NCBI GenBank assembly: GCA_964655705.1
Contig: CAZZPP010000001.1
Span: 9,207 to 58,123 of the forward strand
DNA: 48,917 bases
Direction: 5' to 3'
Source of the DNA: an uncultured Candidatus Saccharibacteria bacterium
GTDB taxonomy: Bacteria > Patescibacteriota > Dojkabacteria > SC72
Under the pieces are notes generated by a model. It was given only the letters and a program-made list of their open reading frames with translations, searched no databases and was not told the DNA's origin. Position 1 is the first letter of the stretch. Each line of letters opens with the position of its first letter. Of this stretch, positions 1 to 42,066 are shown in pieces. A program made the translations under genes and the position numbers.

Positions 1-2022
1 TGGTCATGTACAGGTGGTACTTTGATTGAAAATGTGATAACTCTAACTTCTGAAGACGATGTAACATGTACAATCACTAATACTGCACAACCAGCAACAG
101 TAGTTGTTTACAAGAATGTTGTTGATTGGAACGGAAGTGAAGCATATTCTGATCAGGAGTTTGAAGTGATACTTGAAGGAAAGCTTTTGGTACCTTCTCA
201 GAATATTAGAGATTCAGAATTAGAACCAATGGTAGCTACTTTTGGTTTGCTAGATGCAGGAATATATACACCAACTGAAATAAATGTACCTGATGGATAC
301 ATATTTAATGAATGTTCTGTATATAGGCCTGTATTGAGTGATACAGAAATGTCAGCTATGTCCGTTCGTCCAACCAATTATGTAGGTAATGGAGAAACAC
401 TTGCATTTGTATGTGAGAACGAAGCAATACAACCAGAGTTAACTATCACAAAAGATAATGATAGTCCCATCTCAGGATTAGAAACAGGAAGTACAGTACT
501 TTACACATTAAGAATTGAAGCTCCATCTAATGAAACAGAAGGAACATATCTTGTTAACAATGTAAAAGTAACTGACATATTACCTGAAGGATTTGGATAT
601 GTAGCAGGTAGCTGGACAGCAGTATCCTCAGTTAGAGGAGATCTTAAAGCATTAAATATAACTAACCAACCAACATATAATGGCTCTCCTGCAACCTGGA
701 TACTAGGAAAAATGGTAGAAGGAGAAGTAATAACTCTAACATATGTTGCTAAAATTAACCTTCTTAATGAACCAGGAACATATAAAGATCTGGCATATGT
801 ACAAGGAGATTCCATACTAGCAGTATTAGATACTGGAGATGTATTAGGTCTAAGTTATAACGGAGGATATACACTTACTGAAACATTTGGAAAAAACTTC
901 GTAGGAACAAGAGTATTAATAATTGAACCAATAGAAGATGGAGGAGAAGTATTAGGAGCATCTATTACCTTACCAGTTACAGGTGCAGATACATATATAA
1001 CATTAGGAGCATTAATATCTATGATATTAGGATTTGTATTAATACTGTTTGGAAAGAAAAGAAAAATAGGGACTCTCTTTGTAGCCCTTGTAATCTCTCT
1101 TGGGTTGTTTACATTGTTAAAACCAATTGAAACATATGCCCAAACTCAAACACAAGTAAGTATTAGGTTAGAACAACCTAAAACAGGAATAACAGATAAA
1201 GAGTTTGAAATAACATATGTAGCTCTATCCATACCAGCACAACCATTAACAATACAATGTAAATACTCAACAGATGAGAATACCTGGGTTGATTTTGATA
1301 CTCCTAAAACAGCAAACAGTGATAGCTGTAGGGTAAATGAAACCGTAATTACTGGAAGCGGAACATACTACTTTAAAGTTGTTGCATCAACTACAGGTGG
1401 AGGAGCAGATTCTCAAGTAGTAAGTGTAGATATAATAGGGAACCCCTTACCAGTAACAGAGTACTCAAAAACAGAAGGAACATGTACATATACTCTTAAA
1501 TTTAAATCAACTACATCTAAAGTACAAATATATAGATCAGACAATCAGAAATCCTTCTATGCAGATGATACAACCTTAATAACCAAACCATCCCTTTCTG
1601 TTACACCTAACGTATTAACAACATATACAGACTCTAGTATTACAGACTGCTCTAAAGATTACTACTACGCAATTAGGTCCATAGATGACTACAACAATGT
1701 ATCTACCTTAGTAACAGATGACATTGTTACCATTGTAAGAACACCAGCCCCAATAACACCAACTACTCCAACTGAAATAACAGATGATGAAGGTGAAGTT
1801 GAAGGAGACGAAACAGCAATTGATGAAGAAGAAAAGGAAGATGAAAAAGAGGAAGGAGATGTTAAAGGAGATGAGGATACAGATTCTGAAAATGGAGAAG
1901 AAGACCAGGAAGATGAGAATAGTATTAAATCAATATGGGATGAATACAGATATTTAATTATCGCAATGGTAGTGGTAGCATTAGGAAGTGGAGTATACAA
2001 CTATGTCAGAAGAAAAAAGTAA
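1..2022 (+). CDS. 5'-truncated multidomain surface protein: pilin/SpaA-like repeat end, DUF11-like domain, internal LPVTG+TM+KKRK sorting signal, second signal peptide, FN3/Ig-like region, acidic linker, C-terminal TM
   Basis: Frame is open from base 1 (WSCTGGTLIEN..DVTCTITN). DUF11-like pattern LTITK..TVLYTLRI..VKVTDILPEGF.YV.GS. LPVTG at 970-984. D/E-rich stretch near 1785-1920. Ends in a hydrophobic helix plus RRKK. Confidence 0.8.
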   Translation, partial: WSCTGGTLIENVITLTSEDDVTCTITNTAQPATVVVYKNVVDWNGSEAYSDQEFEVILEGKLLVPSQNIRDSELEPMVATFGLLDAGIYTPTEINVPDGYIFNECSVYRPVLSDTEMSAMSVRPTNYVGNGETLAFVCENEAIQPELTITKDNDSPISGLETGSTVLYTLRIEAPSNETEGTYLVNNVKVTDILPEGFGYVAGSWTAVSSVRGDLKALNITNQPTYNGSPATWILGKMVEGEVITLTYVAKINLLNEPGTYKDLAYVQGDSILAVLDTGDVLGLSYNGGYTLTETFGKNFVGTRVLIIEPIEDGGEVLGASITLPVTGADTYITLGALISMILGFVLILFGKKRKIGTLFVALVISLGLFTLLKPIETYAQTQTQVSIRLEQPKTGITDKEFEITYVALSIPAQPLTIQCKYSTDENTWVDFDTPKTANSDSCRVNETVITGSGTYYFKVVASTTGGGADSQVVSVDIIGNPLPVTEYSKTEGTCTYTLKFKSTTSKVQIYRSDNQKSFYADDTTLITKPSLSVTPNVLTTYTDSSITDCSKDYYYAIRSIDDYNNVSTLVTDDIVTIVRTPAPITPTTPTEITDDEGEVEGDETAIDEEEKEDEKEEGDVKGDEDTDSENGEEDQEDENSIKSIWDEYRYLIIAMVVVALGSGVYNYVRRKK

Positions 2023-2668
2023 GAAATCTAAAGCAGGATACATAAAATATATAGGTATCCTGCTCCTTCTCCTTGGTTTGGGAATTCTGTACTATACATT
2101 TCAACCATTTATCTCTTCATATCTTGATTATAAATTAACCCCTGAACCGCAAAAAGAGATTAAGATTGAACTAACCAAGGGAGATGAAGAGATTACTACT
2201 GAGATTAAGAAGGATACAGAAGTAGTATTTGTTAATAGTGAATTCGGTCTTTACATTCCAAAAATACAAGCAAATGCGAAAGTAATAAAAAATATTGACC
2301 CATACGATTACGATGCATACCGTAATGCATTAATATATGGAGTAGTACATGCGAAAGGTAGTGCACTCCCTTCTGAACCTGGAAATGTATTTCTTTTTGC
2401 TCATTCTACAGTAAACTTCTATGAAAGAAGAAAATACAATGTATATTTTTACCTTCTAGGAGAATTAGAAAAAGATGATCCAATATATGTAAGCTATCAA
2501 GGGGGAATGTATAAATACAAGGTATTAGAGTTCAAAGTTGTAAAACCTGAAGAGATTCAATATATGGGTGAATATTTAGATCAAGATACTCTTACTCTAA
2601 TGACCTGTTGGCCAGTAGGATCAAATAGTAAAAGAGCAATAGTTACAGCTATACGGGATTTAGAGTAA
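2003..2668 (+). CDS. Sortase (first paralog)
   Basis: N-terminal TM anchor; catalytic His (FLFAHS), Cys (TLMTCWP) and Arg (KRAIVTA). ATG 2003 preferred to GTG 1988; overlaps the upstream stop. Confidence 0.92.
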   Translation: MSEEKSKKSKAGYIKYIGILLLLLGLGILYYTFQPFISSYLDYKLTPEPQKEIKIELTKGDEEITTEIKKDTEVVFVNSEFGLYIPKIQANAKVIKNIDPYDYDAYRNALIYGVVHAKGSALPSEPGNVFLFAHSTVNFYERRKYNVYFYLLGELEKDDPIYVSYQGGMYKYKVLEFKVVKPEEIQYMGEYLDQDTLTLMTCWPVGSNSKRAIVTAIRDLE

Positions 2669-2727
2669 AAAAATATCCCAATATCCTGTAAAATACATAG
2701 TTATACATTATATATACATATACAAAT

Positions 2728-3576
2728 ATGAAAATACTTGATGGTAAACAAACAGCATTAAAGATATCCACTAGATTGAAAAAAGAAATATCAGAATTCT
2801 TACAACAAGGGAAGAGAGCTCCTAAGATAGAAATAATTCTTGTTGGAGATGATTATGCAAGTAAGATGTATGTAGATATGAAATCTAAGAAAGCTCTGGA
2901 TTTAGGTATAGATGTAAAAGTACATTCTTTAGAAGAAAACACAACAACAGAGGAGTTGGAAAAAATCTTAAACGAGTTAAATCAGAATGCCAGTATCGAT
3001 GGAATAATGGTTCAATTACCATTACCAAAACATATTGAGGAGAAAAGAATCCTGGGAATTATTTCTCCTCTTAAAGATGTAGATGGATTAACATCATATA
3101 ACTTGGGGAAACTTTTTAAAAATGATAGCAGTGCAATAGCGCCAGCAACTGCAAAGGGTGTAATACTACTTCTTAAAGAATACGACATCCAAATTGATGG
3201 TAAAAATGTAGTTGTAATTGGAAGGGGGGATATTGCAGGACTACCAATTGCAGCTATGCTTCAAAATGAAAATGGTACTGTAACAATATGTCATTCACAT
3301 ACGCAGAACTTAAAAGGAATATGTAAGAATGCCGATATCTTAGTATCTAGTATAGGGAAACCTGAATATATTAATTCTGAATATATTAAAGAAGGAAGCA
3401 TTGTAATTGATGTAGGAACCAACAGGAATACTGATGGAAAGTTAGTAGGAGATATAGACTTTTACTCTGTTAAAGATTTAGTCAAATATATTACACCAGT
3501 ACCTGGTGGTGTCGGCCCTATGACAATTGCTTGTCTGTTTGATAATTTAATTGAGATATATAGAAAGAATGTATAA
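2728..3576 (+). CDS. folD: Methylenetetrahydrofolate dehydrogenase/cyclohydrolase
   Basis: MKILDGK start, [31 protein letters not shown]. Confidence 0.97.
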
Positions 3577-14624: not shown

Positions 14625-16447
14625 TATGTTTTTAATATACTTAAGAATGCCTCCTGGGGGATATTTACTTGTCCAATCTGTTTTAATCTCTTCTTACCCT
14701 TCTTCTGTTTCTCTAGTAATTTTAATCGTCTTGTATAATCTCCTCCATACAGTTTCGCTGTAACATCTTTGCGAAAGCCCTTTACATCTTGCCTTGCAAT
14801 AATCTTTGCCCCTATGGCTGCTTGAAGTGGAATAGGGAACTGTTGTCTTGGTATCTCTCCTTTCATTACTTCAAGTAGTCTAGATGCTTTAGTTTGTGCT
14901 AATTCTCGTGTTTCCAAAAAACTTAATGCAGGTATCTCTTCATGATTAACTAATACTGAGACTTTTACTAAATCTACGGGGAAGAAATCAATTAATTCAT
15001 ACTCCATAGAGGCGTAGCCACTTGATTGGTTTTTAAGTAAATCAAAAAAGTTAGATACTAAAGATGCTAGAGGTATATCGTACTCCAATACTATGTATTG
15101 GTCTTTTAATTGTATATCTCCAGAGGTATTAGACATGTACTTAGTATTTACATATACTCCCCTTTTGTATTGACACAACTCCATTAGGGGTCCCATATAC
15201 CTATCTGGTGTCATTATCTTTAGTCTTACCCAAGGTTCAAATATTTCAGATATCTCAGAGGGATCTGGTAGTTCTTGGGGTGTCTGTATATCAATCTTTG
15301 TACCATCTGTTCTAGTTACTTTGTATTCAACCGTTGGTGCAGTAATTATTAAATCTACGTCATACTCTCTTTCTAATCTCTCTTGAACTATCTCCATATG
15401 TAGTAAGCCTAAGAAACCACATCTAAATCCTGAACCCAGTAAGTTAGATCGTTGATCTGAGAATGTTAGGGCTGCATCATTCATACTTAATTTGTTTAAT
15501 CCAATTTTTAATGGCTCATACTCATCTGTAGTTATCGGGAAGAAAGTAGCATATACATTTGGTTTAGGGATTTTGTATCCCTCAAGAGGTTGGGTTAGTT
15601 TACTGTCTGATATTGTATCTCCAACTGTAAACATACTGATATTTTTGAATCCTGTTGCAATATATCCAACCTCTCCTGTACTAAGTTGTGTAGTCTCCTC
15701 TAAATCTGGTTTAAATATTCCTACCTCTGTTGGTTTAAAGCTCTCTCCCTTTTGTAAGATATGTAGGTCAACAGATTTCCCAGGTATATACATTACGCAG
15801 CCTTCAAACACCCTTACGGCAACAACTACCCCTCTATGTTCATCATAGAAGGAATCAAAAATGAGGGCTTTTAGTGGCTTACTAAAATCTCCCTTTGGAG
15901 GTGGGCATCTTTCAACAATTGCATCTAAGAGTTGTTCTACTCCTTCCCCGCTTTTGCCAGATACTTTTATAATTTCTTCTTTCTTAAATCCCAAGAGTTG
16001 AATTAATTCCTCTTCTCTTTCTTGAATATTAATATTAGGTAAATCTATTTTGTTTATTACTGGTATTAAGGTAAGACCCAGTTCTAGCGCTTTTTGGGTG
16101 TTTGATATTGTTTGAGCTTGAATACCTTGTGATGCATCTACTAAAAGTATTGCTGCTTCGCATGCAGCCAGTGATCTAGATACTTCGTAAGAGAAATCTA
16201 CATGACCAGGAGTATCTATTAGGTTTAATTCTGTTTCCTTCCACATCATCCTACAAGCCTGCAGTTTAATTGTAATACCTTTCTCTTGTTCTAATTCTAA
16301 TCTATCAAGTATTCGTGATTCCCTCTTGTCTCTTGAGATATCAATGTGTGCAGCCTCTAACATCCTGTCTGCTAAAGTTGATTTTCCATGATCTATATGA
16401 GCGATGATGGAAAAGTTCCTAATTTTATTTAAATCAGTTTTACCCAT
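14624..16447 (-). CDS. lepA: Elongation factor 4 (LepA)
   Basis: IRNFSIIAHIDHGKSTLADR, DTPGHVDF, GFRCGFLGLLH, RKDVTAKLYGGD. Confidence 0.98.
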   Translation of the reverse strand: MGKTDLNKIRNFSIIAHIDHGKSTLADRMLEAAHIDISRDKRESRILDRLELEQEKGITIKLQACRMMWKETELNLIDTPGHVDFSYEVSRSLAACEAAILLVDASQGIQAQTISNTQKALELGLTLIPVINKIDLPNINIQEREEELIQLLGFKKEEIIKVSGKSGEGVEQLLDAIVERCPPPKGDFSKPLKALIFDSFYDEHRGVVVAVRVFEGCVMYIPGKSVDLHILQKGESFKPTEVGIFKPDLEETTQLSTGEVGYIATGFKNISMFTVGDTISDSKLTQPLEGYKIPKPNVYATFFPITTDEYEPLKIGLNKLSMNDAALTFSDQRSNLLGSGFRCGFLGLLHMEIVQERLEREYDVDLIITAPTVEYKVTRTDGTKIDIQTPQELPDPSEISEIFEPWVRLKIMTPDRYMGPLMELCQYKRGVYVNTKYMSNTSGDIQLKDQYIVLEYDIPLASLVSNFFDLLKNQSSGYASMEYELIDFFPVDLVKVSVLVNHEEIPALSFLETRELAQTKASRLLEVMKGEIPRQQFPIPLQAAIGAKIIARQDVKGFRKDVTAKLYGGDYTRRLKLLEKQKKGKKRLKQIGQVNIPQEAFLSILKT

Positions 16448-16494: not shown

Positions 16495-17049
16495 TTACTG
16501 AATCTCTTTAATATCTAGTTGGAAGTCCTCATTAAACCTGACATTAGAGAAACTCTCAATAGCGAGATATACAACATATTTCTCCTTAGGAATTAAAAGA
16601 ATCTTTTGTGCAGTTATATCCCCATTAGGACTTTGAATTCTATATACCTGATCATTGATGATTAATGAGATATTGGAACGGGTAGGTATATTGGTATTTC
16701 CATATATCTCTAGTTTAATCTCATCATTTTTGTTATTAGTTATCTCTAATATGGGTTTAGAGTACCTATCCGCATCCCTATTCTCTATGGTGGTTGTATA
16801 CCTATATACCCCCTGTTCATCTTGTTCAAGTCTTTCTCTACTAAATATTTGATGACTACCTCCAACTATCTGTATATCTAATTCTGCCTTTTCACTTACA
16901 CCTAATACATCAATTTCTTTTAGAGCTTTAGTTAAAGGTTCTAAATTCATAACGGTGATTGTTGGTATTATGAAGAGTAGGGCAAGTAAGCCAAGAGCTA
17001 TTGGTTCAATTACTAAGGTAAGAAATTTTTTAAACTTTTGATTTTTCAT
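16495..17049 (-). CDS. Membrane-anchored beta-rich hypothetical protein
   Basis: N-terminal TM followed by DVLGVS motif; stop/start overlap with the upstream gene. Confidence 0.7.
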   Translation of the reverse strand: MKNQKFKKFLTLVIEPIALGLLALLFIIPTITVMNLEPLTKALKEIDVLGVSEKAELDIQIVGGSHQIFSRERLEQDEQGVYRYTTTIENRDADRYSKPILEITNNKNDEIKLEIYGNTNIPTRSNISLIINDQVYRIQSPNGDITAQKILLIPKEKYVVYLAIESFSNVRFNEDFQLDIKEIQ

Positions 17050-17597
17050 TAGTAGTACTTCTTACTATCAGGATATACCTTACTAACTTGAATTTCAAAT
17101 GATTTAAGTGCTCCTAAACCACAAAGCAGTGAAACTACCCCTGATATATATGCAATCCATTGATATGTATCTCCTTCAATTGCATTTTTAATAATTAATC
17201 CACTACATAGCCAGAGGAATACACACCAAATGAAGATTTGAAGAAAGGTAGTATCATCCTTTGTAATCCATTTAAGAGCATTGAACTTAGTAACCTTTAC
17301 AATCGTTTTAGGATTTTGTAGGGTAGATTGAAACAGTAAAGTCTTAAGTATTTGATATATCGTAGGTACTGCTATTACTAAAAGCATCAGTAAATCGGAT
17401 ATTGAATTCACAAAGTAGGTAATTTGAGCATCATCGAAATATATCTGTGTAGAAAAGAAACCATTAATATCGTTTCCTATCTCCAATGGGTATCCATATT
17501 TTGCAGAGATTAAAAATATTCCGAGTGTTTTACCAGCAATCATTAATATCGCTGGAACTATGGAATTTTTAAGAGCTCTTTTGAGTAGTTTTGACAT
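17049..17597 (-). CDS. Integral membrane hypothetical protein (about 4 TM)
   Basis: Four hydrophobic segments; co-oriented between rpsT and 16495-17049. Confidence 0.72.
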   Translation of the reverse strand: MSKLLKRALKNSIVPAILMIAGKTLGIFLISAKYGYPLEIGNDINGFFSTQIYFDDAQITYFVNSISDLLMLLVIAVPTIYQILKTLLFQSTLQNPKTIVKVTKFNALKWITKDDTTFLQIFIWCVFLWLCSGLIIKNAIEGDTYQWIAYISGVVSLLCGLGALKSFEIQVSKVYPDSKKYY

Positions 17598-17865
17598 TAT
17601 CTTTGGATAGTTTGTTTAGTTGAATTGCAAGCCTTGATTTTTTACGACTTGCCTTACCCTTTTTAATGACATTCTTCTTAGCAGCTTTGTCAAGGACTTT
17701 GAAAGTCTGATTAAGTGATTTCTCAGCCTTCTCTTTGTCACCTTCTTTGATGCTATCTCTGAAATTCTTTTCAGACCTTTTTACTCTGTTTCTAAGTCTG
17801 TCATTAAAAGTACTTTTTCTTTTACTACTTCTTAAATCTTTTATTGATGTTTTTAAGTTTGGCAT
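17569..17865 (-). CDS. rpsT: 30S ribosomal protein S20
   Basis: MPNLKTSIK.LR, LDKAAKKNVIKK.KASR.KSRL. Confidence 0.95.
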   Translation of the reverse strand: MPNLKTSIKDLRSSKRKSTFNDRLRNRVKRSEKNFRDSIKEGDKEKAEKSLNQTFKVLDKAAKKNVIKKGKASRKKSRLAIQLNKLSKDNVKTTQKSS

Positions 17866-17966
17866 CGTGATATATATATTATTAAATGTATGATAACTGT
17901 GCTGTATTATATATACTAGAATGGTGTTTGTAAACAGAATATTTTATTGATACACTATAACTAGAT

Positions 17967-18365
17967 ATGATTAATACTAAAAAGGTACTTCTCATTACCC
18001 TTCTAATTGTAATCCCACTTGTTGCTTTGATATCATCTGGGTATTTAATATTCTTTAAACAAGATTCAGAAGTTAAGGGAGTAACTACTAAAGAAAAGGG
18101 TTGTGTACCATATATTGTAAATACAATACCAAGAGTTGCATATGTTGGAGAGGAATACCACTTCTTTCCAAGAGTATCTGGATGTCAGGTAGAAGAGATT
18201 GAGGTGAGAGGAGTAGGATGGTTAAATGTTGATAGTGATATGGGTATTTCGGGTATTCCCAAAAAGGAAGATATTGGAACTTTTAAGATTGAGATATATA
18301 CTCGTAGTAGTACGGATAGTTATGTGCTCAAAGATTACATAATCGTTAAAGAGAATGAGAAATAA
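17967..18365 (+). CDS. Small membrane-anchored protein with putative Ig (He_PIG/cadherin-like) domain
   Basis: N-terminal TM, SEVKGV, then P..AYVGEEY.F..GWL......ISG.P...D.G.F.I.I. Confidence 0.7.
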   Translation: MINTKKVLLITLLIVIPLVALISSGYLIFFKQDSEVKGVTTKEKGCVPYIVNTIPRVAYVGEEYHFFPRVSGCQVEEIEVRGVGWLNVDSDMGISGIPKKEDIGTFKIEIYTRSSTDSYVLKDYIIVKENEK

Positions 18366-26216: not shown

Positions 26217-28154
26217 TTATTCCTTTTTATCTTTTTCTTCTAATTCCTTAACCTGATCATACAGACTCGTTAAATCTTCACCAGGCTCAGGAGCTTTGTA
26301 CATAGGTGTAATCCCCTCTACTCGAGTAGGAGTTGGGTTTTCAATATTGTTAAGAATATCATCGGGCAAAGGTAATTCAGGCTCAGGGGCTCCGAAATTA
26401 ATGGGGACTTCTTCAGATGTAGATATCTCAGGTTCAGGAGGTGTAAACTCATCCTTAATTAAGTTGTTTACTTGGTTAGTTGGATTAACGATGGGGATAT
26501 CATTAGTAGGTGGCATTGATTCTGGTAATATGGAATTGGTTGTTACATCACCAGATTTGTCTTTCCAAAGCAGAGGAATCAAGAGTGGGATTGTTATTGC
26601 CAAAAGGATTAATCCAATACCTCCTAGAATAATGTACATGGTTCTTTTGGGGATTTCATATCCAAAGATGTTAAAACTATCACTGTCATCTGAAGTTTCT
26701 CCTGAGATTGTAAATGCCCATTCTTTTTCTGTTTCCCCACCATTTGAATCCTTGAAAGATATTGTTACTTTGTGTAAACCTTCAGTTAAAGGATTCTCAG
26801 GTATGTATATTACTGTATGCTCAGATTCAGATATTTTGTTTATCTTTATATCGGTTGTAATATCTCTGTTATCTAATTTCACAAGTATACTCTCCTCTTC
26901 GATTGAAGCACCCTCTGTTGCTATTAAAGAAGCCCTTATTGTTGGAGATGTATTGCTAATTGTATCAGTACTAGTTGGTGACATATTAATAATTTGAGGT
27001 TGAGGTAATATCACCTTGTCATCGGTATCATCCTTCTCCTGGTTTCTGGATATTAATATCTCTTTAGATATATCCATACCTATCCCTGCAGGTTCTTGAT
27101 TATCAACTGCTCTAACGATTACTCTGTAAGCACCATCTTTCAACGAAGAGAGGTCAATACTGTACGATGTTTGTGTTGGAGATATATCCTTATCTATTGT
27201 TGTCCAAGCTAATTCATTTGCAGGGTTAGAAGAGATGTATATCTCGTATCTTAGAATCTGGTTTTCATCCACGGCTTCCCATCTAACTTGAATTGTATTT
27301 TCTGTTGTAATTACAGTATCGCTAACCGGATCAATTATTGTAACTACCGGATTATCATTACTCAGGGTATTTACACTAATTACCCATGATTGTGATGAAA
27401 GATGTTTACTATATCCATCATGAATGAATACATTAGCAAGATAGCTGCCTGGGGTTTTTGTAGAACCTCTAAACTTGATTATTAATTCTCCATTTCCCCC
27501 ATCTCTTATGATGGTGGGTTTTAACCAGGTCTCTCCCTTTGTGAAAGAGAAGGAGTAATTTATGGTGTCTTGATCAATATCTTTTGCTTCAAGAGTATAT
27601 TCGTATGTATCACCACTCTTTATACTCTGAGAGGGTATTGATGCCTTTGGAGTGGTTGTAAATTCTGGCTTTGAATTAGATATTATTGCCTTTACACCCT
27701 GTACATCATAGGGGCTACTAATTACACAAGCAAATGTATTCCCAGCGATATCATTTAATGTACCACCCAGATTGTATGCGCCTTCTGATTGAGGTGTATA
27801 CAGAAAGGATTCTGTAACTTTGTTTACTATTGTAGATTCATAGTTTTTAGTAAAAAGGGTCTTACCCATTCCATCTGTAATTTGAATCTCTTTGATGGTG
27901 GAGTTTTCCGAAAGACCATCTACTTGTATTCTTACCGTATTATCTATCTGTAATGTATATGGATTAACATTAGGGAACGTTATTATGCAGGGGTTAGTAC
28001 TACTAAGTTCAATCTCTTCAAATGCTTTATTCCTACTATCAAAGCTTTCATTTTGAATTAAACTGAAAACGAAGATTGGTATCGTAAGTAGCAAAAGAAA
28101 TGTTAGGAATATATTTTTCTTTTTTGTTCTTGTATGGGCAAGTTTGTTACTCAT
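26217..28154 (-). CDS. Multi-Ig/cadherin/FN3-like surface protein with TM at both ends and Pro/Glu-rich tail
   Basis: NSKPEFTT.P..YEY..A.D.D.D..WL; NDNPVV.I.DP..V.W..Y.V.V.AVD; second TM about 140 aa before the C-terminus. Confidence 0.75.
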   Translation of the reverse strand: MSNKLAHTRTKKKNIFLTFLLLLTIPIFVFSLIQNESFDSRNKAFEEIELSSTNPCIITFPNVNPYTLQIDNTVRIQVDGLSENSTIKEIQITDGMGKTLFTKNYESTIVNKVTESFLYTPQSEGAYNLGGTLNDIAGNTFACVISSPYDVQGVKAIISNSKPEFTTTPKASIPSQSIKSGDTYEYTLEAKDIDQDTINYSFSFTKGETWLKPTIIRDGGNGELIIKFRGSTKTPGSYLANVFIHDGYSKHLSSQSWVISVNTLSNDNPVVTIIDPVSDTVITTENTIQVRWEAVDENQILRYEIYISSNPANELAWTTIDKDISPTQTSYSIDLSSLKDGAYRVIVRAVDNQEPAGIGMDISKEILISRNQEKDDTDDKVILPQPQIINMSPTSTDTISNTSPTIRASLIATEGASIEEESILVKLDNRDITTDIKINKISESEHTVIYIPENPLTEGLHKVTISFKDSNGGETEKEWAFTISGETSDDSDSFNIFGYEIPKRTMYIILGGIGLILLAITIPLLIPLLWKDKSGDVTTNSILPESMPPTNDIPIVNPTNQVNNLIKDEFTPPEPEISTSEEVPINFGAPEPELPLPDDILNNIENPTPTRVEGITPMYKAPEPGEDLTSLYDQVKELEEKDKKE

Positions 28155-29479
28155 TAAAGGTCAATATGGGTATATATATTACTAATTGCCAGTTTCTCAT
28201 TAATTTCAGTTTCAATTCTTCTTAGTACAGAACTACTATATCTCTCATTCTCTGCAACTTCAGTAATTGCTTCGTTAAGTTTCTCTTCCACAAATGACTG
28301 TTCCCCCATCTGCCATGATTTCATATATGGGGCCATATATCCAAGTGCCTGGGTATATTCGCTATCTTTCAATTCAGAATTCATGGATACTCTAGAATAT
28401 GGCTCTCCAAAGGTTCTAATTTTTGCAGCATTTTGATTAAGTCTTCTTAACTGTTCTGGTTGACTTAGAAACTCTACAAATTTCCATGCCTCTAGAGTAT
28501 TAATACTAGTTTTACTTACAGTAGTTCCCCAGTATGTTGAGTAGTATACCTCCTCATTGTTTGTTAATCGTGGTAATGGTGCTAGCCCAAAGTCGATACT
28601 TTCTGTATATTCAAGTATCTCTAAAGCTCTCCAACTTGTACCAAACATCATTGCTAATTTCCCATTAACAAAGAGGGAAAGGTCATTAGGAAGATATGCT
28701 GCCCAAGTAGGATTAACCTCTTGTGCAAAGGAAGTATATTCATCTAATGCTTCAATGGCTCGGGGAGATGTTAGATTAACCGTTGTTCTGTCTTCATTCA
28801 TTATTTGAGCGAGATTCTGGAGGAAGAAATACGAGAGTATGTCTGCAGAGTGAGTAATATTTCTTGAAGTTCCTAGGGCTAGTCCAGATTGAATAATTTT
28901 ACCACTAGAATCCCTTACAGTTAGTTTATGTGCAGCCTCCATGAAGGAGTCCCAATCAGAGGGAGGGGCTGTATATCCTACTTTATTAAGTATCTCCTTA
29001 TTATATATTACCATTAGGCCATCAATTTGTAGGGGTATTGCATAGAGTTGTCCGTCTCTACCTGTAAAATCATCTAATGCTGTAGGGTAGAATTCATTTG
29101 CATATGTATCAATACTCATAACTTGGGAAGGGAGGGGTTCTAGATATTTCTCAAATTTAGGTAACCAACTATTATGAATCATTGAAATGTCAGGAGCAGG
29201 CTCACCATCTTGTAGTGCTTGTTCAAGTCTTGTGTATAGTAGGGATTCATAATTCCTTAAGGATTGTATTGCGTAAGATATCTTTACTCCAGGATTTTGT
29301 GCCTCGTATTTCTCAATTAAAGGATGCATAGCTTCCTCCTCTTCCCAGAATCCCCAGAAAGTTAACTCTACTTGTCTAGGTGTTTTAGGAAGCATTAAAG
29401 CAAGCAATATTGTTAATACCATTGTTACCCCAAGAATTATTAGTAATATCTTTATTAATCTCTTCCTCTTTTCATCCAT
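28154..29479 (-). CDS. Sugar-type extracellular solute-binding protein, TM-anchored
   Basis: LTFWGFW, KYEAQNPGVKI, PDI, LYAIPLQ.D.L..IYNK, P.DWD.F, F..GKLAM.F, AWKFVEFL. Confidence 0.88.
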   Translation of the reverse strand: MDEKRKRLIKILLIILGVTMVLTILLALMLPKTPRQVELTFWGFWEEEEAMHPLIEKYEAQNPGVKISYAIQSLRNYESLLYTRLEQALQDGEPAPDISMIHNSWLPKFEKYLEPLPSQVMSIDTYANEFYPTALDDFTGRDGQLYAIPLQIDGLMVIYNKEILNKVGYTAPPSDWDSFMEAAHKLTVRDSSGKIIQSGLALGTSRNITHSADILSYFFLQNLAQIMNEDRTTVNLTSPRAIEALDEYTSFAQEVNPTWAAYLPNDLSLFVNGKLAMMFGTSWRALEILEYTESIDFGLAPLPRLTNNEEVYYSTYWGTTVSKTSINTLEAWKFVEFLSQPEQLRRLNQNAAKIRTFGEPYSRVSMNSELKDSEYTQALGYMAPYMKSWQMGEQSFVEEKLNEAITEVAENERYSSSVLRRIETEINEKLAISNIYTHIDL

Positions 29480-29497
29480 ATGTATATATTACATAAA

Positions 29498-30292
29498 TTA
29501 TATTCTTTCTGCTACTACAATCAGTCTCTTTATACCGGCACCTAAAGGCCAACAGGTCATTAATGTTACAGTTTCTTTGTCTCCTTGACTTCTTAAGATG
29601 GTAAAATCATCTGCATCTACAATCTTCTTGTTTCTAACAACATATTCGAAAATCTCCTCCTCCTTTTTGATTTCTACTACATCTCCAATGTCTACATCCT
29701 CGAGTTTTGTAAATATGGTCTCAGGTAGATTGGAGTGTTTACTAAAGAAACTTAAAACAGCGCTATGACCATATATGAAGGAGTTACCACCATCACCAGG
29801 AAGAGGTGTTCCCCTGAAATGTGCCAAACCATATTTCAAATATCTGTCATATACTTCCTCCTGAGAGCTCTCTACATTAGGGGTAATTCTTACGGTATCA
29901 ATCCCAACCTCTGAAATTGAGAGGTACATATTTTTACTGTATGACTTGTCTACAACAATTTCCTTTGTACTCTTTGTCTCTGGATCGTAAGTAAAGAGAC
30001 CTTGGTATTCCAAATTTTCGGCGTTCTCTGAAAGATTCTCAAAATAGCTTTTACCTGGGTCGTAGTAAGCAAATTCATTCTCAATATATTCTTTGTATGA
30101 TTCAGGTACAGGATCTTTCATTAGATCTTGCTTTGAAAGTTGAATTTCACCTTGTATATATGAGATTAGAAGAGGAATGGATTGGCTTAAGAGAATTGTT
30201 ACTCCTACAATCCCTAGTATCCAAGAGATACTTTTTTTGGTATCTGCTATTTTCTTCTCACTTACTTTTTTAACTTGTATATCATTATCCAT
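29498..30292 (-). CDS. Sortase (second paralog, with longer stalk)
   Basis: TM; GLAHF.GT.LPG..GNS.I.GHS, TLMTCWP, KRLIVVA. ATG 30292 preferred to TTG 30313. Confidence 0.92.
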   Translation of the reverse strand: MDNDIQVKKVSEKKIADTKKSISWILGIVGVTILLSQSIPLLISYIQGEIQLSKQDLMKDPVPESYKEYIENEFAYYDPGKSYFENLSENAENLEYQGLFTYDPETKSTKEIVVDKSYSKNMYLSISEVGIDTVRITPNVESSQEEVYDRYLKYGLAHFRGTPLPGDGGNSFIYGHSAVLSFFSKHSNLPETIFTKLEDVDIGDVVEIKKEEEIFEYVVRNKKIVDADDFTILRSQGDKETVTLMTCWPLGAGIKRLIVVAERI

Positions 30293-30335
30293 GGGTAAAA
30301 TATATATTACCAATATTGGGTTTTAAAGTCACATG

Positions 30336-30374: not shown

Positions 30375-31469
30375 ATGACAAAAAGAGATTACTATGAAGT
30401 ACTTGGTGTAAACAAGGATTCTAAAAAAGAAGAGATTAAAAAAGCATACAGACAGTTGGTAAAAAAATATCATCCTGATGTGAACAAGGAGGAGGGTGCT
30501 GAGGAGAAGTTTAAGGAGATTCAAGAGGCGTACGAAGTCCTTTCTGAGGAGAGCAAAAGGAAAGCATATGACCAGTATGGTCATGCTGGTACTCAGGGTT
30601 TTGATCCAAGGAGTAGTAATGGTGGAGGTTATGAATATTCATATGGAGGGGCCCCTTTTGATATGGGTGATATATTTAATACGATATTTGGTGGAGGTAA
30701 TGATTTTGGATTTAATTTTGATTTTGGTCAACAATCAGGTAAGAGAAATATTGGGGGTGAGAACATTAGGTACAAGATGAGGTTCAGTTTTGAGGAGGCT
30801 ATGAAAGGTGGTGAGTTTAGTATCAAAGTTAAAAGAAATGTTAAGTGCTCGAAATGTGATGGTACTGGGAGCAAGACTGGAAAGAGAGAGACCTGTGATG
30901 TATGTAAGGGCACTGGTAGAGAGAGGAAAATACGGAATAGTTTCCTAGGACAGATTGCAATGATGGAACAATGTTCAAAATGTGGAGGTTTAGGGAGTAT
31001 TGCGCAGGAGGTTTGTAGTAACTGTAATGGCACTGGCTTGGAGTCTAAGAGTGAGAGTGTAAAGATTAAAATCCCTGCAGGTGCGTATGATGGTATGGTT
31101 TTAAGATTCAGGGAGGGTGGTAATGCAGGCTTAGATGGACAGTATGGTGATCTCTTCATTGAATTAGAAGTTGAACCATCTGAGAAGTTTGATAGGAGGG
31201 GGAATGATTTGTACTCTGTAGAGAGTATACCCATACATACTGCAGTACTTGGGGGGAAGATTGATATTGAGACAATCAAGAAAGATGTTAAATTGAGAAT
31301 TCCTGCGGGTACTCAGCCTAATACAATCTTTAAAGTACGTGGAGAGGGTGCACCGATTTTAGGTAAAGATGATCAAAGGGGTGATTTGTATGTACAAATT
31401 GATGTAGATATACCTAAGAGATTAAGTAAGGAGCAGAAAAAACTTTGGGAGGAGTTGGGTAGGGTATAG
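30375..31469 (+). CDS. dnaJ: Molecular chaperone DnaJ
   Basis: J domain with HPD, G/F region, four CxxCxGxG repeats, IPAGTQP. Confidence 0.98.
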
Positions 31470-34793: not shown

Positions 34794-36899
34794 ATGTTGT
34801 TTAATCATAAGATTTATGAATTTGAGATTGATGGAAGAAAGTGTTCTTTTGAAACAGGAAAACTTGCATTAAAATCAGAGAGTGCAGTTATTGCACGAAT
34901 GGGTGATACAGTTGTAGAGGTTAATGTTAATACATCTCCTGCTAAACAGGAGAGTGATTACTTCCCTATGTCTGTTGAGTATATTGAGAGATTCTATGCA
35001 TCTGGAAAGATAAATGGTTCTAGGTTTGTTAAGATTGAAAGATTTCCTAGTGATGATGCAATCCTTAAAGCAAGGATGATAGATAGGGCACTGAGATCTA
35101 GATTTCCTAGTGACTATAGAGATGATTTAAGTCTCATTGTTACAGTAATGTCATATGACGAAGAGAATGACCCCGTAATATTAGCAATTAACGCTGCTTC
35201 AGTAGCATTGCTAAATTCTAAAGCACCATTTGATGGACCTGTTGCAGGTGTAAGAATGGGAATGGAGAATGGTGAAATAAAAGGGGTTTACAAAAGTTTA
35301 GAGGATGTAAGTGAACAAGATGTCTTAAACTATGTATTAGGAGGAGATGAGAAACTGTTTACAATGATTGATGCTGGTTGCTATGAACTCCCAGAAGATC
35401 AAGTATTAAAAGCTATGGAGTTAGGTTTAGTGGAAATGAAGAAATGGATATCTGCTCAAAATGAGTTTGTTAAGCTACTTGAGAAGAAAGAGAAGACTTA
35501 CAAGTCATATGCACTAGATGAGAATATGATAAAGGAGATGGAGGAGTTTCTGGGAGAAAGAACAATTGAGAATCTTTTGAAAGGTGATAAGTCTGTTCAC
35601 GAGTCTACTAAGGAAGAGGTATTTGAAAAATTTGCAGGTAAATATACCAAGTTACAAATGAGTGAAGGGTATGAGAAATTACTTAAGAAGGCAATGAGAA
35701 AGTATGTTGTAGAACAAAAGAAACGAGCTGATGGGAGAGGGTATGATGAAATTAGGGAGATGGATGCCCAGATTGATTTACTACCTAGAGTCCATGGATC
35801 TGGATTGTTTACTAGAGGTGTTACTCAAGTACTCTCTATTGCAACCCTAGGTACTCTAGAAGATGCAAAAATGGTAGATGATATGTTAGGAGAGAAAGAG
35901 AAAAGGTATATGCATTACTACAATGATTTACCTTTTGCATATGGTGATACTGATAGGGTAAGACTATCTCCAAGTAGAAGAGCTATTGGTCATGGGATGC
36001 TTGCTGAGAAAGCATTAATACCTGTAATCCCATCTGTTGAAGAATTCCCTTACACAATATTAGTAATGTCAGAAGTACAAGGAGAAAACGGATCTTCATC
36101 TATGGCATCTGCCTGTGGTTCAACCTTAGCCTTAATGGCTGCGGGTGTTCCAATTAAAAAGATGGTTGGTGGTATAGCTTGTGGGTTAGTAGCAGAAGAG
36201 AATGGAGAATTCCATATTCTTACTGATATGCAAGGAGTAGAAGATTTCTATGGGGATATGGATTTCAAGATTACTGGAACAAAAGATGGTATTACTGCAG
36301 TACAGATGGATAACAAGATGTCTGGACTAAGTATGGATATTGTAAAAGCAACCTTTGAAAAGTCAAAGATAGCAAGAGCAGAGGTTTTAAAGATTATGGA
36401 GAAAGCAATTGCTCAACCTAAGGAGCAGTTATCAGAATTCGCACCTAAGGTAGCAAGAGCATCAATCCCAGTAGAAAAGATTGGTGAGTTAATAGGGCCT
36501 GGAGGGAAAAATATTAGGGAGTTAACTGAAAGAACAGGAGCAAAGATATCAGTCGAAGAAAGTGGTGCTGTAAATATCTATTCTATGGATCAAAGTTCCA
36601 TTGATGCAGCATTATCCTATGTAAAAAAATTGGGATTAGTACCGGTAGTAGGAGAAATATATGATGGTAAGGTAGCAACTATTATGGAGTATGGTGCTTT
36701 TGTTGATATTGCACCTGGGATATCAGGTCTTGTTCATGTCTCTGAAATTGCAGAAGGGTTTGTAAAAGATGTAAGAAAATATCTTAAAGAGGGAGATGAT
36801 GTTAAAGTTAAACTCCTTTCTAAGGAAAGAGACGGGAAATTGAAGTTAAGTATTAAACAGGTAGATGCTCCAAAAGAGAAGAGTGAAGCTGTTGAATAG
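34794..36899 (+). CDS. pnp: Polyribonucleotide nucleotidyltransferase
   Basis: ETGKLA, R.IDR.LR, R.DGR, HGSGLFTRG.TQ, RR.IGHG, NGSSSMA, GDMDFK, KH (IG.LIGPGGK) and S1 domains. Confidence 0.97.
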   Translation: MLFNHKIYEFEIDGRKCSFETGKLALKSESAVIARMGDTVVEVNVNTSPAKQESDYFPMSVEYIERFYASGKINGSRFVKIERFPSDDAILKARMIDRALRSRFPSDYRDDLSLIVTVMSYDEENDPVILAINAASVALLNSKAPFDGPVAGVRMGMENGEIKGVYKSLEDVSEQDVLNYVLGGDEKLFTMIDAGCYELPEDQVLKAMELGLVEMKKWISAQNEFVKLLEKKEKTYKSYALDENMIKEMEEFLGERTIENLLKGDKSVHESTKEEVFEKFAGKYTKLQMSEGYEKLLKKAMRKYVVEQKKRADGRGYDEIREMDAQIDLLPRVHGSGLFTRGVTQVLSIATLGTLEDAKMVDDMLGEKEKRYMHYYNDLPFAYGDTDRVRLSPSRRAIGHGMLAEKALIPVIPSVEEFPYTILVMSEVQGENGSSSMASACGSTLALMAAGVPIKKMVGGIACGLVAEENGEFHILTDMQGVEDFYGDMDFKITGTKDGITAVQMDNKMSGLSMDIVKATFEKSKIARAEVLKIMEKAIAQPKEQLSEFAPKVARASIPVEKIGELIGPGGKNIRELTERTGAKISVEESGAVNIYSMDQSSIDAALSYVKKLGLVPVVGEIYDGKVATIMEYGAFVDIAPGISGLVHVSEIAEGFVKDVRKYLKEGDDVKVKLLSKERDGKLKLSIKQVDAPKEKSEAVE

Positions 36900-36901
36900 A
36901 T

Positions 36902-38687: not shown

Positions 38688-38693
38688 TTTAAC

Positions 38694-38723: not shown

Positions 38724-38758
38724 TGTATGTATATATATTAAATTAAGAGAGAAAAAAG

Positions 38759-39052: not shown

Positions 39053-39056
39053 GTCG

Positions 39057-39094
39057 TTGATATTGTTCCTACTACTTAGTATTATGGATAAATG
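39057..39094 (+). promoter_or_regulatory. Promoter for the 39092-47403 cluster (leaderless-type)
   Basis: TTGATA-17-TATTAT, 6 nt, ATG. Confidence 0.62.
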
Positions 39095-40696
39095 AATTTA
39101 ACTCCACATCAGAAGAGACAGTTGAGGTTTGTAATAGTACTTGTTATTGGTATACCTTTAACAGTATTTGCCCTTTACAAAGGGGTCCAACTTTTAATAA
39201 ATGCAAGTGGAGATGCTACACCTCAAGAGGTTGTGGTATCAAATCTTACTACTAGTTCTTTGACTGTAAGTTGGGTAACCGAGAAGGCTGTTGATGGTTA
39301 TGTTATTCCTGTCTTAAATGGTACAGAACAAAATCCCGTATTAGACAAGAGAGGCAGTGGAAAGAGAGAATCTCACTATGTAGTATTGAAGAGTTTAGAG
39401 CCTTCTTCAGAGTACTCCTTTATACTGGTTTCAGATAATGAGAAATATACACAGGGTAGTAGTGGTACTTACAAGTTTACTACTGCTCCCATAGGGGAGG
39501 ATACTCCTGTTCCTAACCCAGTGTATGGTACTGTAACTGGTTCAAATGCACAGGAATCCATTATATATGTAATGTTTAAAGACAAAAGTGTATACCCAGT
39601 ATCTACTGATGTACCTGAGAATGGTAATTGGATTGTAGAACTTTCATCTTTTAGGAGTATATCTGATATGGGTTTAATTAGAACAACAGATAGTACACAG
39701 TTAATAGTAATTGCAAGAAATGGTTTGAATCAAGCTGGTGTAATAGAGGGTAGCTATTCTGAACTTTTTAACAAAAGTGGTCAATTAAATAGTGATTTGG
39801 TATTAGCAGATGTGGCAGTTAACGAAATTACTTCGTATTTCCCTAACCAAACATTACTAGGGAATGCATCAGTAACACCTGATCCTGTACCACAGCCGGA
39901 ACCACAAGCAAAACCAACTCCTAAACCAGTTCCGTCTGTACCAATCTCTACTAAATATATTGTTAGACAGGATGTTCCTTGGGAGGATTTAAGTAATGCT
40001 AGGGTTGGGACCCTAGATCTTACTACTGGTGAAGATAGTGTAGTCATTGTTAACTTAACAGATACCAACTTCGTAGTTGCATGGAGGTCAAGAGAAAAAG
40101 AACAAGGATATATTAAATATGGGCTATCTAAAGAGGTGTTAGATAGTGAAATGAAAGATTCAAGAGATTCTCTAACAGTTAAGGGCGATTATTATTCCCA
40201 CTATATTGAAAGTGGAAGACTAAAACCAGATACAACATATTACTTTGAAATATATTCTGGTGATAGTAAATATGATAATAATGGGAGTAAGTATACCATT
40301 ACTACGTACTCAACACTCTCCTCTGCTCCACCTCTTGATACTCGTGGTGGTACCTTAATTAATTCCTCTGATCCTTCTGATTGGGTCTTGGTATTTCAAC
40401 TAATTGATAATGATGGTGTTGGTACATCTGATTCTTCTGGATATATTGCTACAATACCAGATTTGGATGGGTCTTGGATACTAGTTGTCGGTGATGCTAG
40501 GAGTTCTGATGGTTCATCATACTTCACCTTCTCTCAAGATGATATCTTACAAGCCTCTTTCTTAGGAGCTCAGGGAAACACCTTTGATTTTAATCTAGGA
40601 CAGAATGATATACAATTAGATGTTAGTAAATTAGGTGGTGGAGTAAGAACAAGAGTTGATTTACTCACAGATTATGGAATAGTTGATTTACAATAG
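39092..40696 (+). CDS. Membrane-anchored protein with two tandem FN3-like plus beta-sandwich modules
   Basis: Repeated V.V.NLT...V.W..SHY....L.P...Y.F.I.S...KY and G.W.....RS motifs; Pro-rich linker. Confidence 0.78.
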   Translation: MNLTPHQKRQLRFVIVLVIGIPLTVFALYKGVQLLINASGDATPQEVVVSNLTTSSLTVSWVTEKAVDGYVIPVLNGTEQNPVLDKRGSGKRESHYVVLKSLEPSSEYSFILVSDNEKYTQGSSGTYKFTTAPIGEDTPVPNPVYGTVTGSNAQESIIYVMFKDKSVYPVSTDVPENGNWIVELSSFRSISDMGLIRTTDSTQLIVIARNGLNQAGVIEGSYSELFNKSGQLNSDLVLADVAVNEITSYFPNQTLLGNASVTPDPVPQPEPQAKPTPKPVPSVPISTKYIVRQDVPWEDLSNARVGTLDLTTGEDSVVIVNLTDTNFVVAWRSREKEQGYIKYGLSKEVLDSEMKDSRDSLTVKGDYYSHYIESGRLKPDTTYYFEIYSGDSKYDNNGSKYTITTYSTLSSAPPLDTRGGTLINSSDPSDWVLVFQLIDNDGVGTSDSSGYIATIPDLDGSWILVVGDARSSDGSSYFTFSQDDILQASFLGAQGNTFDFNLGQNDIQLDVSKLGGGVRTRVDLLTDYGIVDLQ

Positions 40697-40704
40697 GGTA
40701 ATCT

Positions 40705-42066
40705 ATGAAAGATGTTTTTGAGAAATTAAAACCAATATTACTATTATTGTCCATGTCATTGGTTTCTTTTGGTATTGTATGGGTAGTGAATCAGTTTAAG
40801 TATAGCAACAAGCCTGTTGTAGTAAGTGCACCTGTTTTACAATCCCCACCCGAACAACAAGAAGAGAGTATGCCTCTAATGGAGGATACGTCAGAACTTT
40901 TAGAGGTACCCCAAGAAAACGAGTACGATGAATATGTTCTCTCAGAGTTAGATGAGTCTGAGGTTAAGGGTGCTGCTCAGTGTAAAAACATTGAGACCTT
41001 TACAGACATTAAATCATCTTCCATATGTATTAGAGAGTTTGAGGACAAGGGGGAAGTAGATTTTGGTGATGGGGAGGCTGTTTCAGGTACATTAGTGAGG
41101 AAGGAAGCTCAAGTAGAGTTAACTAAAGTTACTGTTCCTTTAGAACTGTACTCAGGGGTAGAGGTCGCAGACTCCAACAGATTAATAACTAAAGAGACTC
41201 CTACACTTAAACCAGCTGGTGAACAGGTGGACGATCTTTCTGGGAATGTTCAGATGCCTCCTAATGTACAGGTTGGTACAAAATTAACTTGGGATGAAGA
41301 GAAACCTTTTAAATCTAGTTATGGAGTTGGTTTTGCAAGTGCACCTGATACTTTTACAGAAAGTGGGGATGTTGGAGTTGAAACAGAATTGGGTAATCAG
41401 TGTGATGATGATATGTATAACAATGTTTCAAATGTTAACCCAAGTAGGTCAAATGCCATATTTAAGTTTCTGAATAATACATATTACAGATTTCCTAATG
41501 AAGTATTGGATATAACTGAAGAGACTGCTGCAGAGGAGTGTTCTGATTCTGATACTTTCATAGTTTGGGATAAGAGGGAATATATTGCATGTAGGGCTAG
41601 TTTAGTTACTCAGACGGTTGAGTTTTTCAAGGATATTGTACTCTGGTGGGAGGAATTTGATAACAAGAGGTATTGTGAAGCAAATCCTGATGAGTGTATG
41701 GATACTGAAGACATTATCGTGATGATGACCTCAACTTTTGGATCAGATACAGAATGTACAGATGAGGAAGGGAGTGCATGTACTAATGCATATATGAATA
41801 CTAGAAACAGGGTAGTACTTCCACCAAATGCAGATATGGGTGGTAAACAGTATTTTCTTACTCCATGCAAAGCTAAAGTTAAGGGAGCTCGTGGAGAACA
41901 GGATGTCCAGTGTGCTTGGGATATGTCACATCTGTTTAAAGAGAGAAAAGTAAATGAATATGACGATACACCTAATACTGAGTTTACTCCTTCTGAGGAG
42001 GAATATGAGGAGTTCCTTAAAGAAGAGGTACAGGGTACTAGGGGTACTGAAAGATTAATACAGTAA
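40705..42066 (+). CDS. Membrane-anchored acidic Cys-rich hypothetical protein
   Basis: N-terminal TM, SEVKGA motif, about a dozen Cys mostly in the C-terminal half. Confidence 0.75.
   Translation: MKDVFEKLKPILLLLSMSLVSFGIVWVVNQFKYSNKPVVVSAPVLQSPPEQQEESMPLMEDTSELLEVPQENEYDEYVLSELDESEVKGAAQCKNIETFTDIKSSSICIREFEDKGEVDFGDGEAVSGTLVRKEAQVELTKVTVPLELYSGVEVADSNRLITKETPTLKPAGEQVDDLSGNVQMPPNVQVGTKLTWDEEKPFKSSYGVGFASAPDTFTESGDVGVETELGNQCDDDMYNNVSNVNPSRSNAIFKFLNNTYYRFPNEVLDITEETAAEECSDSDTFIVWDKREYIACRASLVTQTVEFFKDIVLWWEEFDNKRYCEANPDECMDTEDIIVMMTSTFGSDTECTDEEGSACTNAYMNTRNRVVLPPNADMGGKQYFLTPCKAKVKGARGEQDVQCAWDMSHLFKERKVNEYDDTPNTEFTPSEEEYEEFLKEEVQGTRGTERLIQ

Follow-up and report, generated by a model that had tools for sequence, protein, structure and literature searches.

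A putative V-x-G motif beside the anchors of Dojkabacteria surface proteins

We analysed a 48,917-nucleotide stretch of DNA, hereafter the window, from an uncultured, ultra-small bacterium that database homologues place in the Dojkabacteria (WS6), Patescibacteria (GenBank assembly GCA_964655705.1, contig CAZZPP010000001.1, positions 9,207 to 58,123; C1:9207-58123, where C numbers denote contigs). The genome comprises 0.81 Mb in 23 contigs at 34% G+C, and a simple codon-bias caller gave 783 genes and 245,365 amino acids (91% coding). A first-pass annotation, made from the sequence of the window, had noted that the tetrapeptide [ED]-V-[LKQE]-G recurs in linkers of unrelated exported proteins, and had proposed it as a candidate processing or sorting signal, with a protease site, a glycosylation or chaperone tag, or a Gly nucleophile for sortase as possible roles. 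We observed that all nine cited occurrences are in frame where they had been placed. The copies are heterogeneous: by comparison with orthologues, about half appear to represent a conserved short motif in stalks beside anchors, which we call the VLG box, and the rest appear to be coincidences.

Conservation was assessed by homologue searches in the genomes of relatives and by alignments of 7-18 sequences each, some closely related; the alignments were picked for carrying the motif. The conservation percentile of a tetrapeptide is its rank among the 4-mers of the same protein. The nine sites, with the position cited in the first-pass annotation in parentheses, were as follows.

838-849, + strand (835): DVLG inside or after a DUF11 domain; coincidental, 30th percentile, with the first two columns gapped in 5 of 7 sequences
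946-957, + strand (943): EVLG box in the context GGEVLGASIT-LPVTG, 4 residues upstream of the sortase signal; 99th percentile
1795-1806, + strand (1792): EVEG box (G-E-V-E-G-D) in an acidic stalk, 52 amino acids before the C-terminal transmembrane segment; 96th percentile
1858-1869, + strand (1855): DVKG box (G-D-V-K-G-D-E-D) in the acidic stalk, 31 amino acids before the C-terminal transmembrane segment and RRKK; 98th percentile
16900-16911, − strand (16894): DVLG box of a 184-amino-acid protein, about 15 amino acids after the N-terminal transmembrane segment (N-L-x-P...x-V-L-G-V); conserved
18069-18080, + strand (18066): EVKG box of a 132-amino-acid protein, about 5-9 amino acids after the N-terminal transmembrane segment ([ED]-V-x-G-V); conserved
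27696-27707, − strand (27687): DVQG of a 645-amino-acid Big_7 protein; coincidental or genus-level, 35th percentile
40960-40971, + strand (40957): EVKG in the acidic linker after the transmembrane segment of a 453-amino-acid protein (40705-42066); not conserved in register, 8th percentile
42025-42036, + strand (42022): EVQG in the C-terminal tail x-V-[KQ]-G-x-R-G of the same 453-amino-acid Cys-rich protein; conserved, no anchor nearby

Orthologue alignments reaching down to 23-32% identity showed conserved islands at sites 943, 1792, 1855, 16894 and 18066. The islands follow the pattern (G)-[ED]-V-x-G-[A/V/D/E], with V (V or I in the 184-amino-acid family) and G fixed and the middle residue free, and stand within otherwise variable linkers beside anchors. 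Half of the tested matches to the motif (6 of 12) had a conservation percentile of 87 or higher. Conservation of V and of G alike reached 90% or more in 7 of 12 matches, compared to 2 of 20 other x-V-x-G tetrapeptides in the same alignments. The proposed sharing of a short signal by linkers of unrelated exported proteins found support at five cited sites out of nine and in one family from the held-out proteome (the genome minus the window, 94% of the proteome). It did not extend to sites 835, 27687 and 40957, which were not conserved, and several matches are unrelated motifs, such as the start of a J-domain.

The islands at 943, 1792 and 1855 lie in a 666-amino-acid fragment of a surface protein (ORF, open reading frame, 22-2022). 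Its sorting signal and the sortase genes of the window are:

970-984, + strand: LPVTG sortase motif, followed by a transmembrane segment and KKRK, mid-ORF; a sequence reading, with LPxTG conserved in the alignment
1988-2668, + strand: sortase gene overlapping the end of the LPVTG protein gene; Pfam PF04203, E = 6.1e-24
29498-30313, − strand: second sortase gene of the window; Pfam PF04203, E = 7e-22

Across seven homologues (32-53% identity, one of them order-level), G182, V184, L185, G186, I189, L191, P192, T194 and G195 were invariant. The alignment pattern G-E-V-L-G-A-x-I-x-L-P-x-T-G held also at 32% identity. In the 1795-1806 box, G465, V467 and G469 were invariant within an acidic stalk of variable length. 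The 1858-1869 box had invariant G486, V488, G490 and E492, and the order-level homologue reads GEVLGEEE. As for a cognate sortase, two Pfam Sortase genes are present in the window, which also encodes an LCP-family enzyme. A sortase signal adjoins only one box (946-957); the other boxes are near plain N- or C-terminal transmembrane anchors. The V-x-G box itself is not an LPXTG-type pentapeptide and gave no NCBIfam sorting-domain match.

We also noted the layout of the 666-amino-acid ORF. After the mid-ORF LPVTG, transmembrane segment and KKRK, the same frame continues with a second transmembrane segment and a Y-A↓Q signal-peptidase-like site, an Ig/FN3-like ectodomain, the acidic stalk and a final transmembrane segment with RRKK. 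Judging from this arrangement, sortase cleavage would free a separate membrane-anchored 'part 2'. Orthologues of the fragment are single ORFs of 878-2,840 amino acids. A 100-N scaffold gap (C1:9106-9206) directly precedes the window, and because the same ~54 nt are found on both flanks of the gap, the 5' part of this large surface-protein gene results from joining in the assembly, and the N-terminus as read may not be the true one. The second sortase gene heads an apparent operon (26217-30313, − strand) with a solute-binding protein and the 645-amino-acid Big_7 surface protein (26217-28154). In the latter, a conserved LEIPKRT precedes the transmembrane segment (residues 508-526) and is a possible non-canonical sorting motif.

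The 184-amino-acid protein (16495-17049) had only four invariant columns, L36, P38, L49 and G50, among 18 sequences spanning the order down to 23% identity. L49 and G50 were invariant in 95 database homologues as well. The box in this family is x-[VI]-L-G-[VI], and the expectation of an acidic first position everywhere did not hold here, where D, N, S or H is found. N-L-x-P stands directly after the transmembrane segment, and the spacer of 8-14 residues between it and the box varies in length and sequence. Among 12 orthologues of the 132-amino-acid protein (17967-18365), position 35 was E or D, V36, G38 and V39 were invariant, position 37 was K, E, M or L, and the flanks drifted. No Pfam or NCBIfam model covers the box, or the small proteins in which it occurs.

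Both small proteins were modelled with AlphaFold2. In the 184-amino-acid model (mean predicted local distance difference test, pLDDT, 83), residues 36-54 had pLDDT < 50. The 132-amino-acid model (mean pLDDT 82) comprised a helix at 4-29, residues 33-42 with pLDDT < 50, and an Ig-like domain at ~47-128. Each model runs from a transmembrane helix through a low-confidence segment with the box into a confident beta-sandwich. The linker around the box is therefore predicted to be disordered in these two families, and the box, lying in the segment of pLDDT < 50, is not a predicted part of the fold. A Foldseek search with the 184-amino-acid model gave generic jelly-roll or CBM-like matches only (TM-score ~0.3), and no TasA-like match.

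The two genes lie at a conserved cluster (16495-18365 region of the window) with the order rpsT, a 182-amino-acid polytopic membrane protein, the 184-amino-acid protein and lepA; the 132-amino-acid Ig-like anchored gene is divergent beside it. Both genes occupy the same neighbourhood in another genus and in another family of the order, and the 182-amino-acid gene adjoins the 184-amino-acid gene in eight genomes of the same genus. We considered the co-transcribed 182-amino-acid protein as a dedicated protease and rejected it: it is highly conserved (85% mean column identity) but has no conserved His, and it matched no Pfam family and no protease family.

Turnover of the motif was suggested by the 453-amino-acid protein. 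A few columns upstream of its non-conserved EVKG, 8 of 11 orthologues have V-L-G or V-L-A, and two more have E-V-L then Ser. This site closes the variable acidic linker, and the first conserved Cys follows closely. At that column the source genome reads VLS (40936-40944, 'EYVLSE'), and EVKG stands seven residues downstream, which looks, from the alignment, like linear-motif turnover. In the C-terminal tail of the same protein (42025-42036), V442 and R446 were invariant, G444 was at least 90% conserved, and the first position varied (E, K, Q or S). At the Big_7 site (27696-27707), D-[IV]-[KQ]-G occurs within the genus only and is absent from order-level homologues.

The box recurs in the held-out proteome. 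In a 1,111-amino-acid protein (C7:3927-7262), K-Y-x-x-E-V-L-G was invariant, 28 amino acids before a transmembrane segment and RKKRKK. The held-out matches C3 7400 (EVLG) and C3 36153 (EVQG) showed no conservation in register. Two N-terminally anchored paralogues share D-V-[QR]-G-[LI]-Y within a diverged linker. These paralogues (C1:109979-111307 and C14:164-1612; 442 and 482 amino acids, 69% identical) also carry 5-7 repeats of [ST]-D-V-[LM]-[EAS]-G-K-x-F-Y. The C-terminal cassette of the 1,111-amino-acid protein (NKYQTEVLGEESTEGSIQVRVTQ..., transmembrane segment, RKKRKK) is present in three genomic copies of 75-93% identity (one within C7:3927-7262, and the fragments C18:4877-5059 and C8:21829-22011). 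Two of the three copies sit at the end of a contig, a hint that these tails of surface proteins are swappable or repeated and break the assembly.

In other families, two pre-anchor matches to a DNA pattern for GEV[LF]GA read 'GEVLGASKTPANVPTGPVEDA' followed by a transmembrane segment, and 'PTPTPEEGEVLGAEELTYARKKQ...' at the C-terminus. In other families of the Candidate Phyla Radiation (CPR), the box lies upstream of VPTGP and LTYA-type C-terminal signals.

Boxes stand from a few to ~60 residues outside the anchors, after N-terminal transmembrane segments, before C-terminal ones, and 4 residues before LPVTG. The statement that most cited copies adjoin anchors was correct for sites 943, 1792, 1855, 16894, 18066 and 40957; site 27687 is 116 amino acids from the nearest transmembrane segment, and site 42022 is in a C-terminal tail.

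The alignments show selection on the V and the G of the box, which flank a single residue; that residue and the linker around it drift. Codons for V, L and G in the box differ synonymously between orthologues, so selection acts on the peptide. The same variation rules out a nucleotide-level Shine-Dalgarno-like GGAG (GGA-GAA...GGA-G), and GGT or GGC is used in other lineages. The consensus compiled from the aligned sequences is (G/polar)-[ED, sometimes N/S]-V-[L/K/A/E/Q]-G-[A/V/I/D/E]; an example box peptide is EDGGEVLGASIT. The motif contains no Ser, Thr or Asn acceptor for glycosylation, one of the roles that had been suggested for it. On these data, it is likely that a shared motif exists beside the anchors of Dojkabacteria surface proteins.

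Matches to [ED]-V-[LKQE]-G are of three kinds: the juxta-anchor box, unrelated conserved motifs of cytoplasmic proteins, and chance (835, 27687 and 40957). Three further in-frame matches in the window are all in cytoplasmic housekeeping proteins:

14777-14788, − strand: DVKG in LepA; Pfam GTP_EFTU and LepA_C
30396-30407, + strand: EVLG at the J-domain start of DnaJ (YYEVLGV); Pfam DnaJ residues 5-66, E = 2.4e-27
36072-36083, + strand: EVQG in PNPase; Pfam RNase_PH, KH and S1 domains

The match at 30396 is covered by the J-domain N-terminus (PF00226) and is therefore unrelated to the surface box. The first-pass annotation had itself cautioned that SEVQGE occurs in cytoplasmic PNPase and that chance matches exist; this caution was justified, the PNPase, DnaJ and LepA copies being unrelated. 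From the wider set [ED]V.G, we considered and rejected as a box the DVNG of a 306-amino-acid protein, which instead belongs to a dockerin/EF-hand-like loop, G-D-V-N-G-D-G/A-V-V-D. This protein (C10:7601-8521) carries the calcium-loop-like motif just before its C-terminal transmembrane anchor, conserved across the order. The matches to [ED]-V-[LKQE]-G do not fit the dockerin/EF-hand pattern (D-x-[DN]-x-D-G-x-[IV]-D): they have L, K, Q or E at loop position 3 and no D-G pair.

The conservation of V and G around a free middle residue would be best fitted by a protease site or a strand-docking site. With side chains alternating, V at −3, a free −2, G at −1 and a small or acidic +1 residue would lie as a strand in a protease cleft, whose specificity would resemble the −3/−1 preference of S26 (type I signal peptidase). 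One shared extracytoplasmic factor would read the box, and its predicted role would be that of a proteolytic maturation or shedding site, freeing or trimming the ectodomain from its anchor in the manner of PPEP-1. We put forward an endoprotease site with −3/−1 specificity as a tentative prediction, whose chance of being right we place somewhat short of even.

Several observations weigh against a protease site. The box lies 5 to ~60 amino acids from the membrane, on either side of the transmembrane segment, unlike canonical LepB cleavage at the membrane surface. The box-bearing proteins also carry ordinary Ala-type signal-peptidase-like sites (KLSA↓Q, TYA↓Q), and the analysis found no candidate for a dedicated protease. 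The box is missing from several C-terminally anchored proteins and sortase-type substrates encoded by this genome, and the cassette box may just end a beta-strand of the preceding domain. Across 101 Patescibacteria genomes, the DNA pattern for GEV[LF]GA matched 19 times and its reversed control 10 times. Eight of these matches were translated; three were in a pre-anchor stalk, including one orthologue of the 666-amino-acid protein, and the other five were out of frame or lay elsewhere, some inside domains. The alignments were small, partly of close kin, and the shape of the motif was chosen post hoc.

Counting gave further points of this sort. Expected counts are from within-protein shuffles unless local shuffles are named. 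Genome-wide, we observed 50 matches against 36.9 expected. The window alone held 12 against 2.7 expected, and the excess of the whole genome was confined to it; outside the window, there were 38 matches against 34.2 expected. The first-pass annotation had made enrichment in exported proteins, or near anchors, over a shuffled background its own test. Held-out proteins with transmembrane segments showed no such enrichment (14 vs 13.1 expected), and those with an N-terminal transmembrane segment had 11 matches against 7.0 expected. Within 40 amino acids of a transmembrane segment, the held-out density was 0.24 per thousand compared to 0.17-0.18 (p = 0.37); the same test on all data, window included, gave 0.45 compared to 0.20-0.24 per thousand (p = 0.05). 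The pooled degenerate motif fails this enrichment test. An unbiased k-mer scan near anchors ranked EV.G, DV.G and VLG only ~440-630 of 4,922, and Lys/Arg clusters (the positive-inside rule) were at the top.

We also estimated how readily a window of this size yields such a motif. Some motif of the form [2 residues]-x-[4 residues]-y with 15-21 matches was found in 40 of 40 shuffled windows, at a median best Poisson p of 4e-8; the motif studied here, by our own Poisson estimate (12 vs ~2.7), gives ~3e-5 and is weaker. Every shuffled window thus holds a stronger motif of the same shape, and the local excess is what post-hoc selection gives. In the 80 amino acids after N-terminal transmembrane segments, local shuffles gave 9 matches vs 2.1 expected for the motif, 16 vs 7.4 for [ED]V.G and 12 vs 4.2 for VLG, while the control patterns ILG, LLG, VLS, VLA and VIG were flat; these 80-residue windows and patterns were chosen after the alignments had been inspected. 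Any xVLG was over-represented in the proteome regardless of its first residue (GVLG 15 vs 6.4, FVLG 11 vs 4.5). Genome-wide counting of a degenerate tetrapeptide would reject the finding, and orthologue conservation marks about half of the matches as real.

These counts bear on the reading that the matches have no common function, i.e. that the tetrapeptide is post hoc and the conserved cases are independent family features sharing a V-x-G strand-turn element. The missing held-out enrichment, the stronger motifs of the shuffled windows and the general excess of xVLG are as this reading predicts. Other [ED]V.G matches are known motifs (the J-domain start and the loop D-V-N-G-D-G-x-V-D), the alignments were selected for motif content, and the evidence overall consists of weak counts and modest alignments. 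We nevertheless consider it rather unlikely. V-x-G preceded by an acid was far more conserved than other x-V-x-G, the high conservation percentiles cover half of the tested matches, and the box is a conserved island of a variable juxtamembrane linker in three unrelated families. AlphaFold2 predicts disorder for the box linker in both modelled families, and the same box occurs before anchors in other CPR lineages. A further reading is a structural element that acts passively, as a hinge, turn or strand cap that would set the geometry of the stalk relative to membrane or peptidoglycan, with no enzyme involved. An invariant Gly with a beta-branched Val two residues earlier commonly marks the end of a strand before a turn, the cassette box follows the beta-hairpin-like 'KYKVKIEYNGEKYETEVLG', and the distance from the membrane would put the box in or near the wall layer. 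A mere hinge would not require the acidic residue and the Val to be conserved within a low-complexity, acidic stalk, the same sequence recurs across unrelated folds, and in both AlphaFold2 models the segments are of low confidence and contact nothing. Such an element is, in our estimate, very improbable.

The box could instead serve the sortase system as a docking tag, either as an uncleaved exosite extending the LPxTG signal or as a mark of anchored acceptors for protein-protein ligation. The near-constant spacing of 4 residues between box and LPVTG (6 of 7 homologues) and the C-terminal signals that follow the box in other CPR families are consistent with this. So are the in-frame fusion of the LPVTG protein to membrane-anchored 'part 2', whose stalk holds two boxes, and the presence of at least two sortases in the window alone of a 0.8-Mb genome in which few canonical LPxTG substrates were seen. 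A docking tag accounts for the box next to LPVTG and leaves unexplained the four of five box families that have no sortase-type motif (the 184-, 132- and 453-amino-acid proteins and the C-terminal cassette), in which the box can be 28-60 amino acids from a plain transmembrane segment. The VPQTG protein and other sortase-type substrates here lack the box. The middle Lys varies between homologues, so the box offers no evident conserved nucleophile. We regard a docking tag as unlikely, and retain the endoprotease site as the favoured reading.

A broader proposal is that the V-x-G box is the address label of an undescribed CPR-wide maturation system for N-terminally, C-terminally and sortase-anchored proteins, which would be a surprise to us if it proved correct. 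The system may involve a lineage-specific −3/−1 sheddase that governs ectodomain release in these epibiotic cells, or, more boldly, cleavage or docking at the box may supply acceptor ends for sortases. If true, the LPVTG adhesin could be ligated to box-bearing anchored partners by the sortases of the organism. Most surface proteins of the CPR/Patescibacteria, which live attached to other cells, lack annotation. The box, which appears to be conserved better than any other feature in several stalks, would, if real, be a handle on the maturation, display or release of these proteins. It would offer a simple sequence rule for locating juxta-anchor stalks and could eventually lead to the enzyme that reads it.

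In literature on sortase-linked EVLG/VLGA and on CPR sorting signals, we found no description of the box. On its sequence and position, it appears to be a variant of the class of juxta-anchor sorting or processing motifs, apparently undescribed and with a putative function. We compared it with three known systems. The LPXTG/sortase signal (TIGR01167, PF00746, PF04203) and the box are alike in the proteins and the juxtamembrane position that they occupy. One box precedes LPVTG by 4 residues, and the LPVTG protein gene has a sortase gene next to it. The box differs in that it is not a tripartite C-terminal signal, occurs without an LPxTG-like motif and after N-terminal anchors, and is not covered by the NCBIfam and Pfam models.

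Type I signal peptidase (S26) sites share with the box a small or aliphatic −3 residue (Val), a free −2 and a small −1 residue (Gly), and often Gly at −5. The −3/−1 residues agreed in the conserved instances (−3 is V or I in the 184-amino-acid family). The spacing, ~3-9 residues after an N-terminal hydrophobic core, agreed only in the 132-amino-acid protein and so fails overall. The box lies 15-19 residues after the transmembrane segment in the 184-amino-acid family and 40-70 after it in the 453-amino-acid family, and others are 17-52 residues upstream of C-terminal transmembrane segments. Most boxes thus differ from S26 sites in being 15-60 residues from a transmembrane segment or upstream of C-terminal ones, positions at which, to our knowledge, LepB does not act. 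The conservation of the −4 acidic and +1 residues is also unusual for signal peptidase sites.

A third system is formed by PPEP-1 and PPEP-2, which cut P↓P-X-P sites that separate the adhesin domains from the cell-wall anchor in CD2831 and CD3246 of Clostridioides difficile and VMSP of Paenibacillus alvei; the PPEP metalloprotease is usually encoded beside its substrate (PMC8610288). The box differs in having V-x-G in place of Pro-Pro, with no Pro-Pro within it, and in also following N-terminal anchors. Here the neighbouring genes are a sortase and housekeeping genes, no gene for a dedicated protease was identified, adjacent or otherwise, and cleavage is predicted only. What they share is a short conserved motif in the stalk, close outside the anchor and in places immediately before an LPxTG-like signal; it recurs in otherwise unrelated surface proteins, sometimes in more than one copy per stalk.

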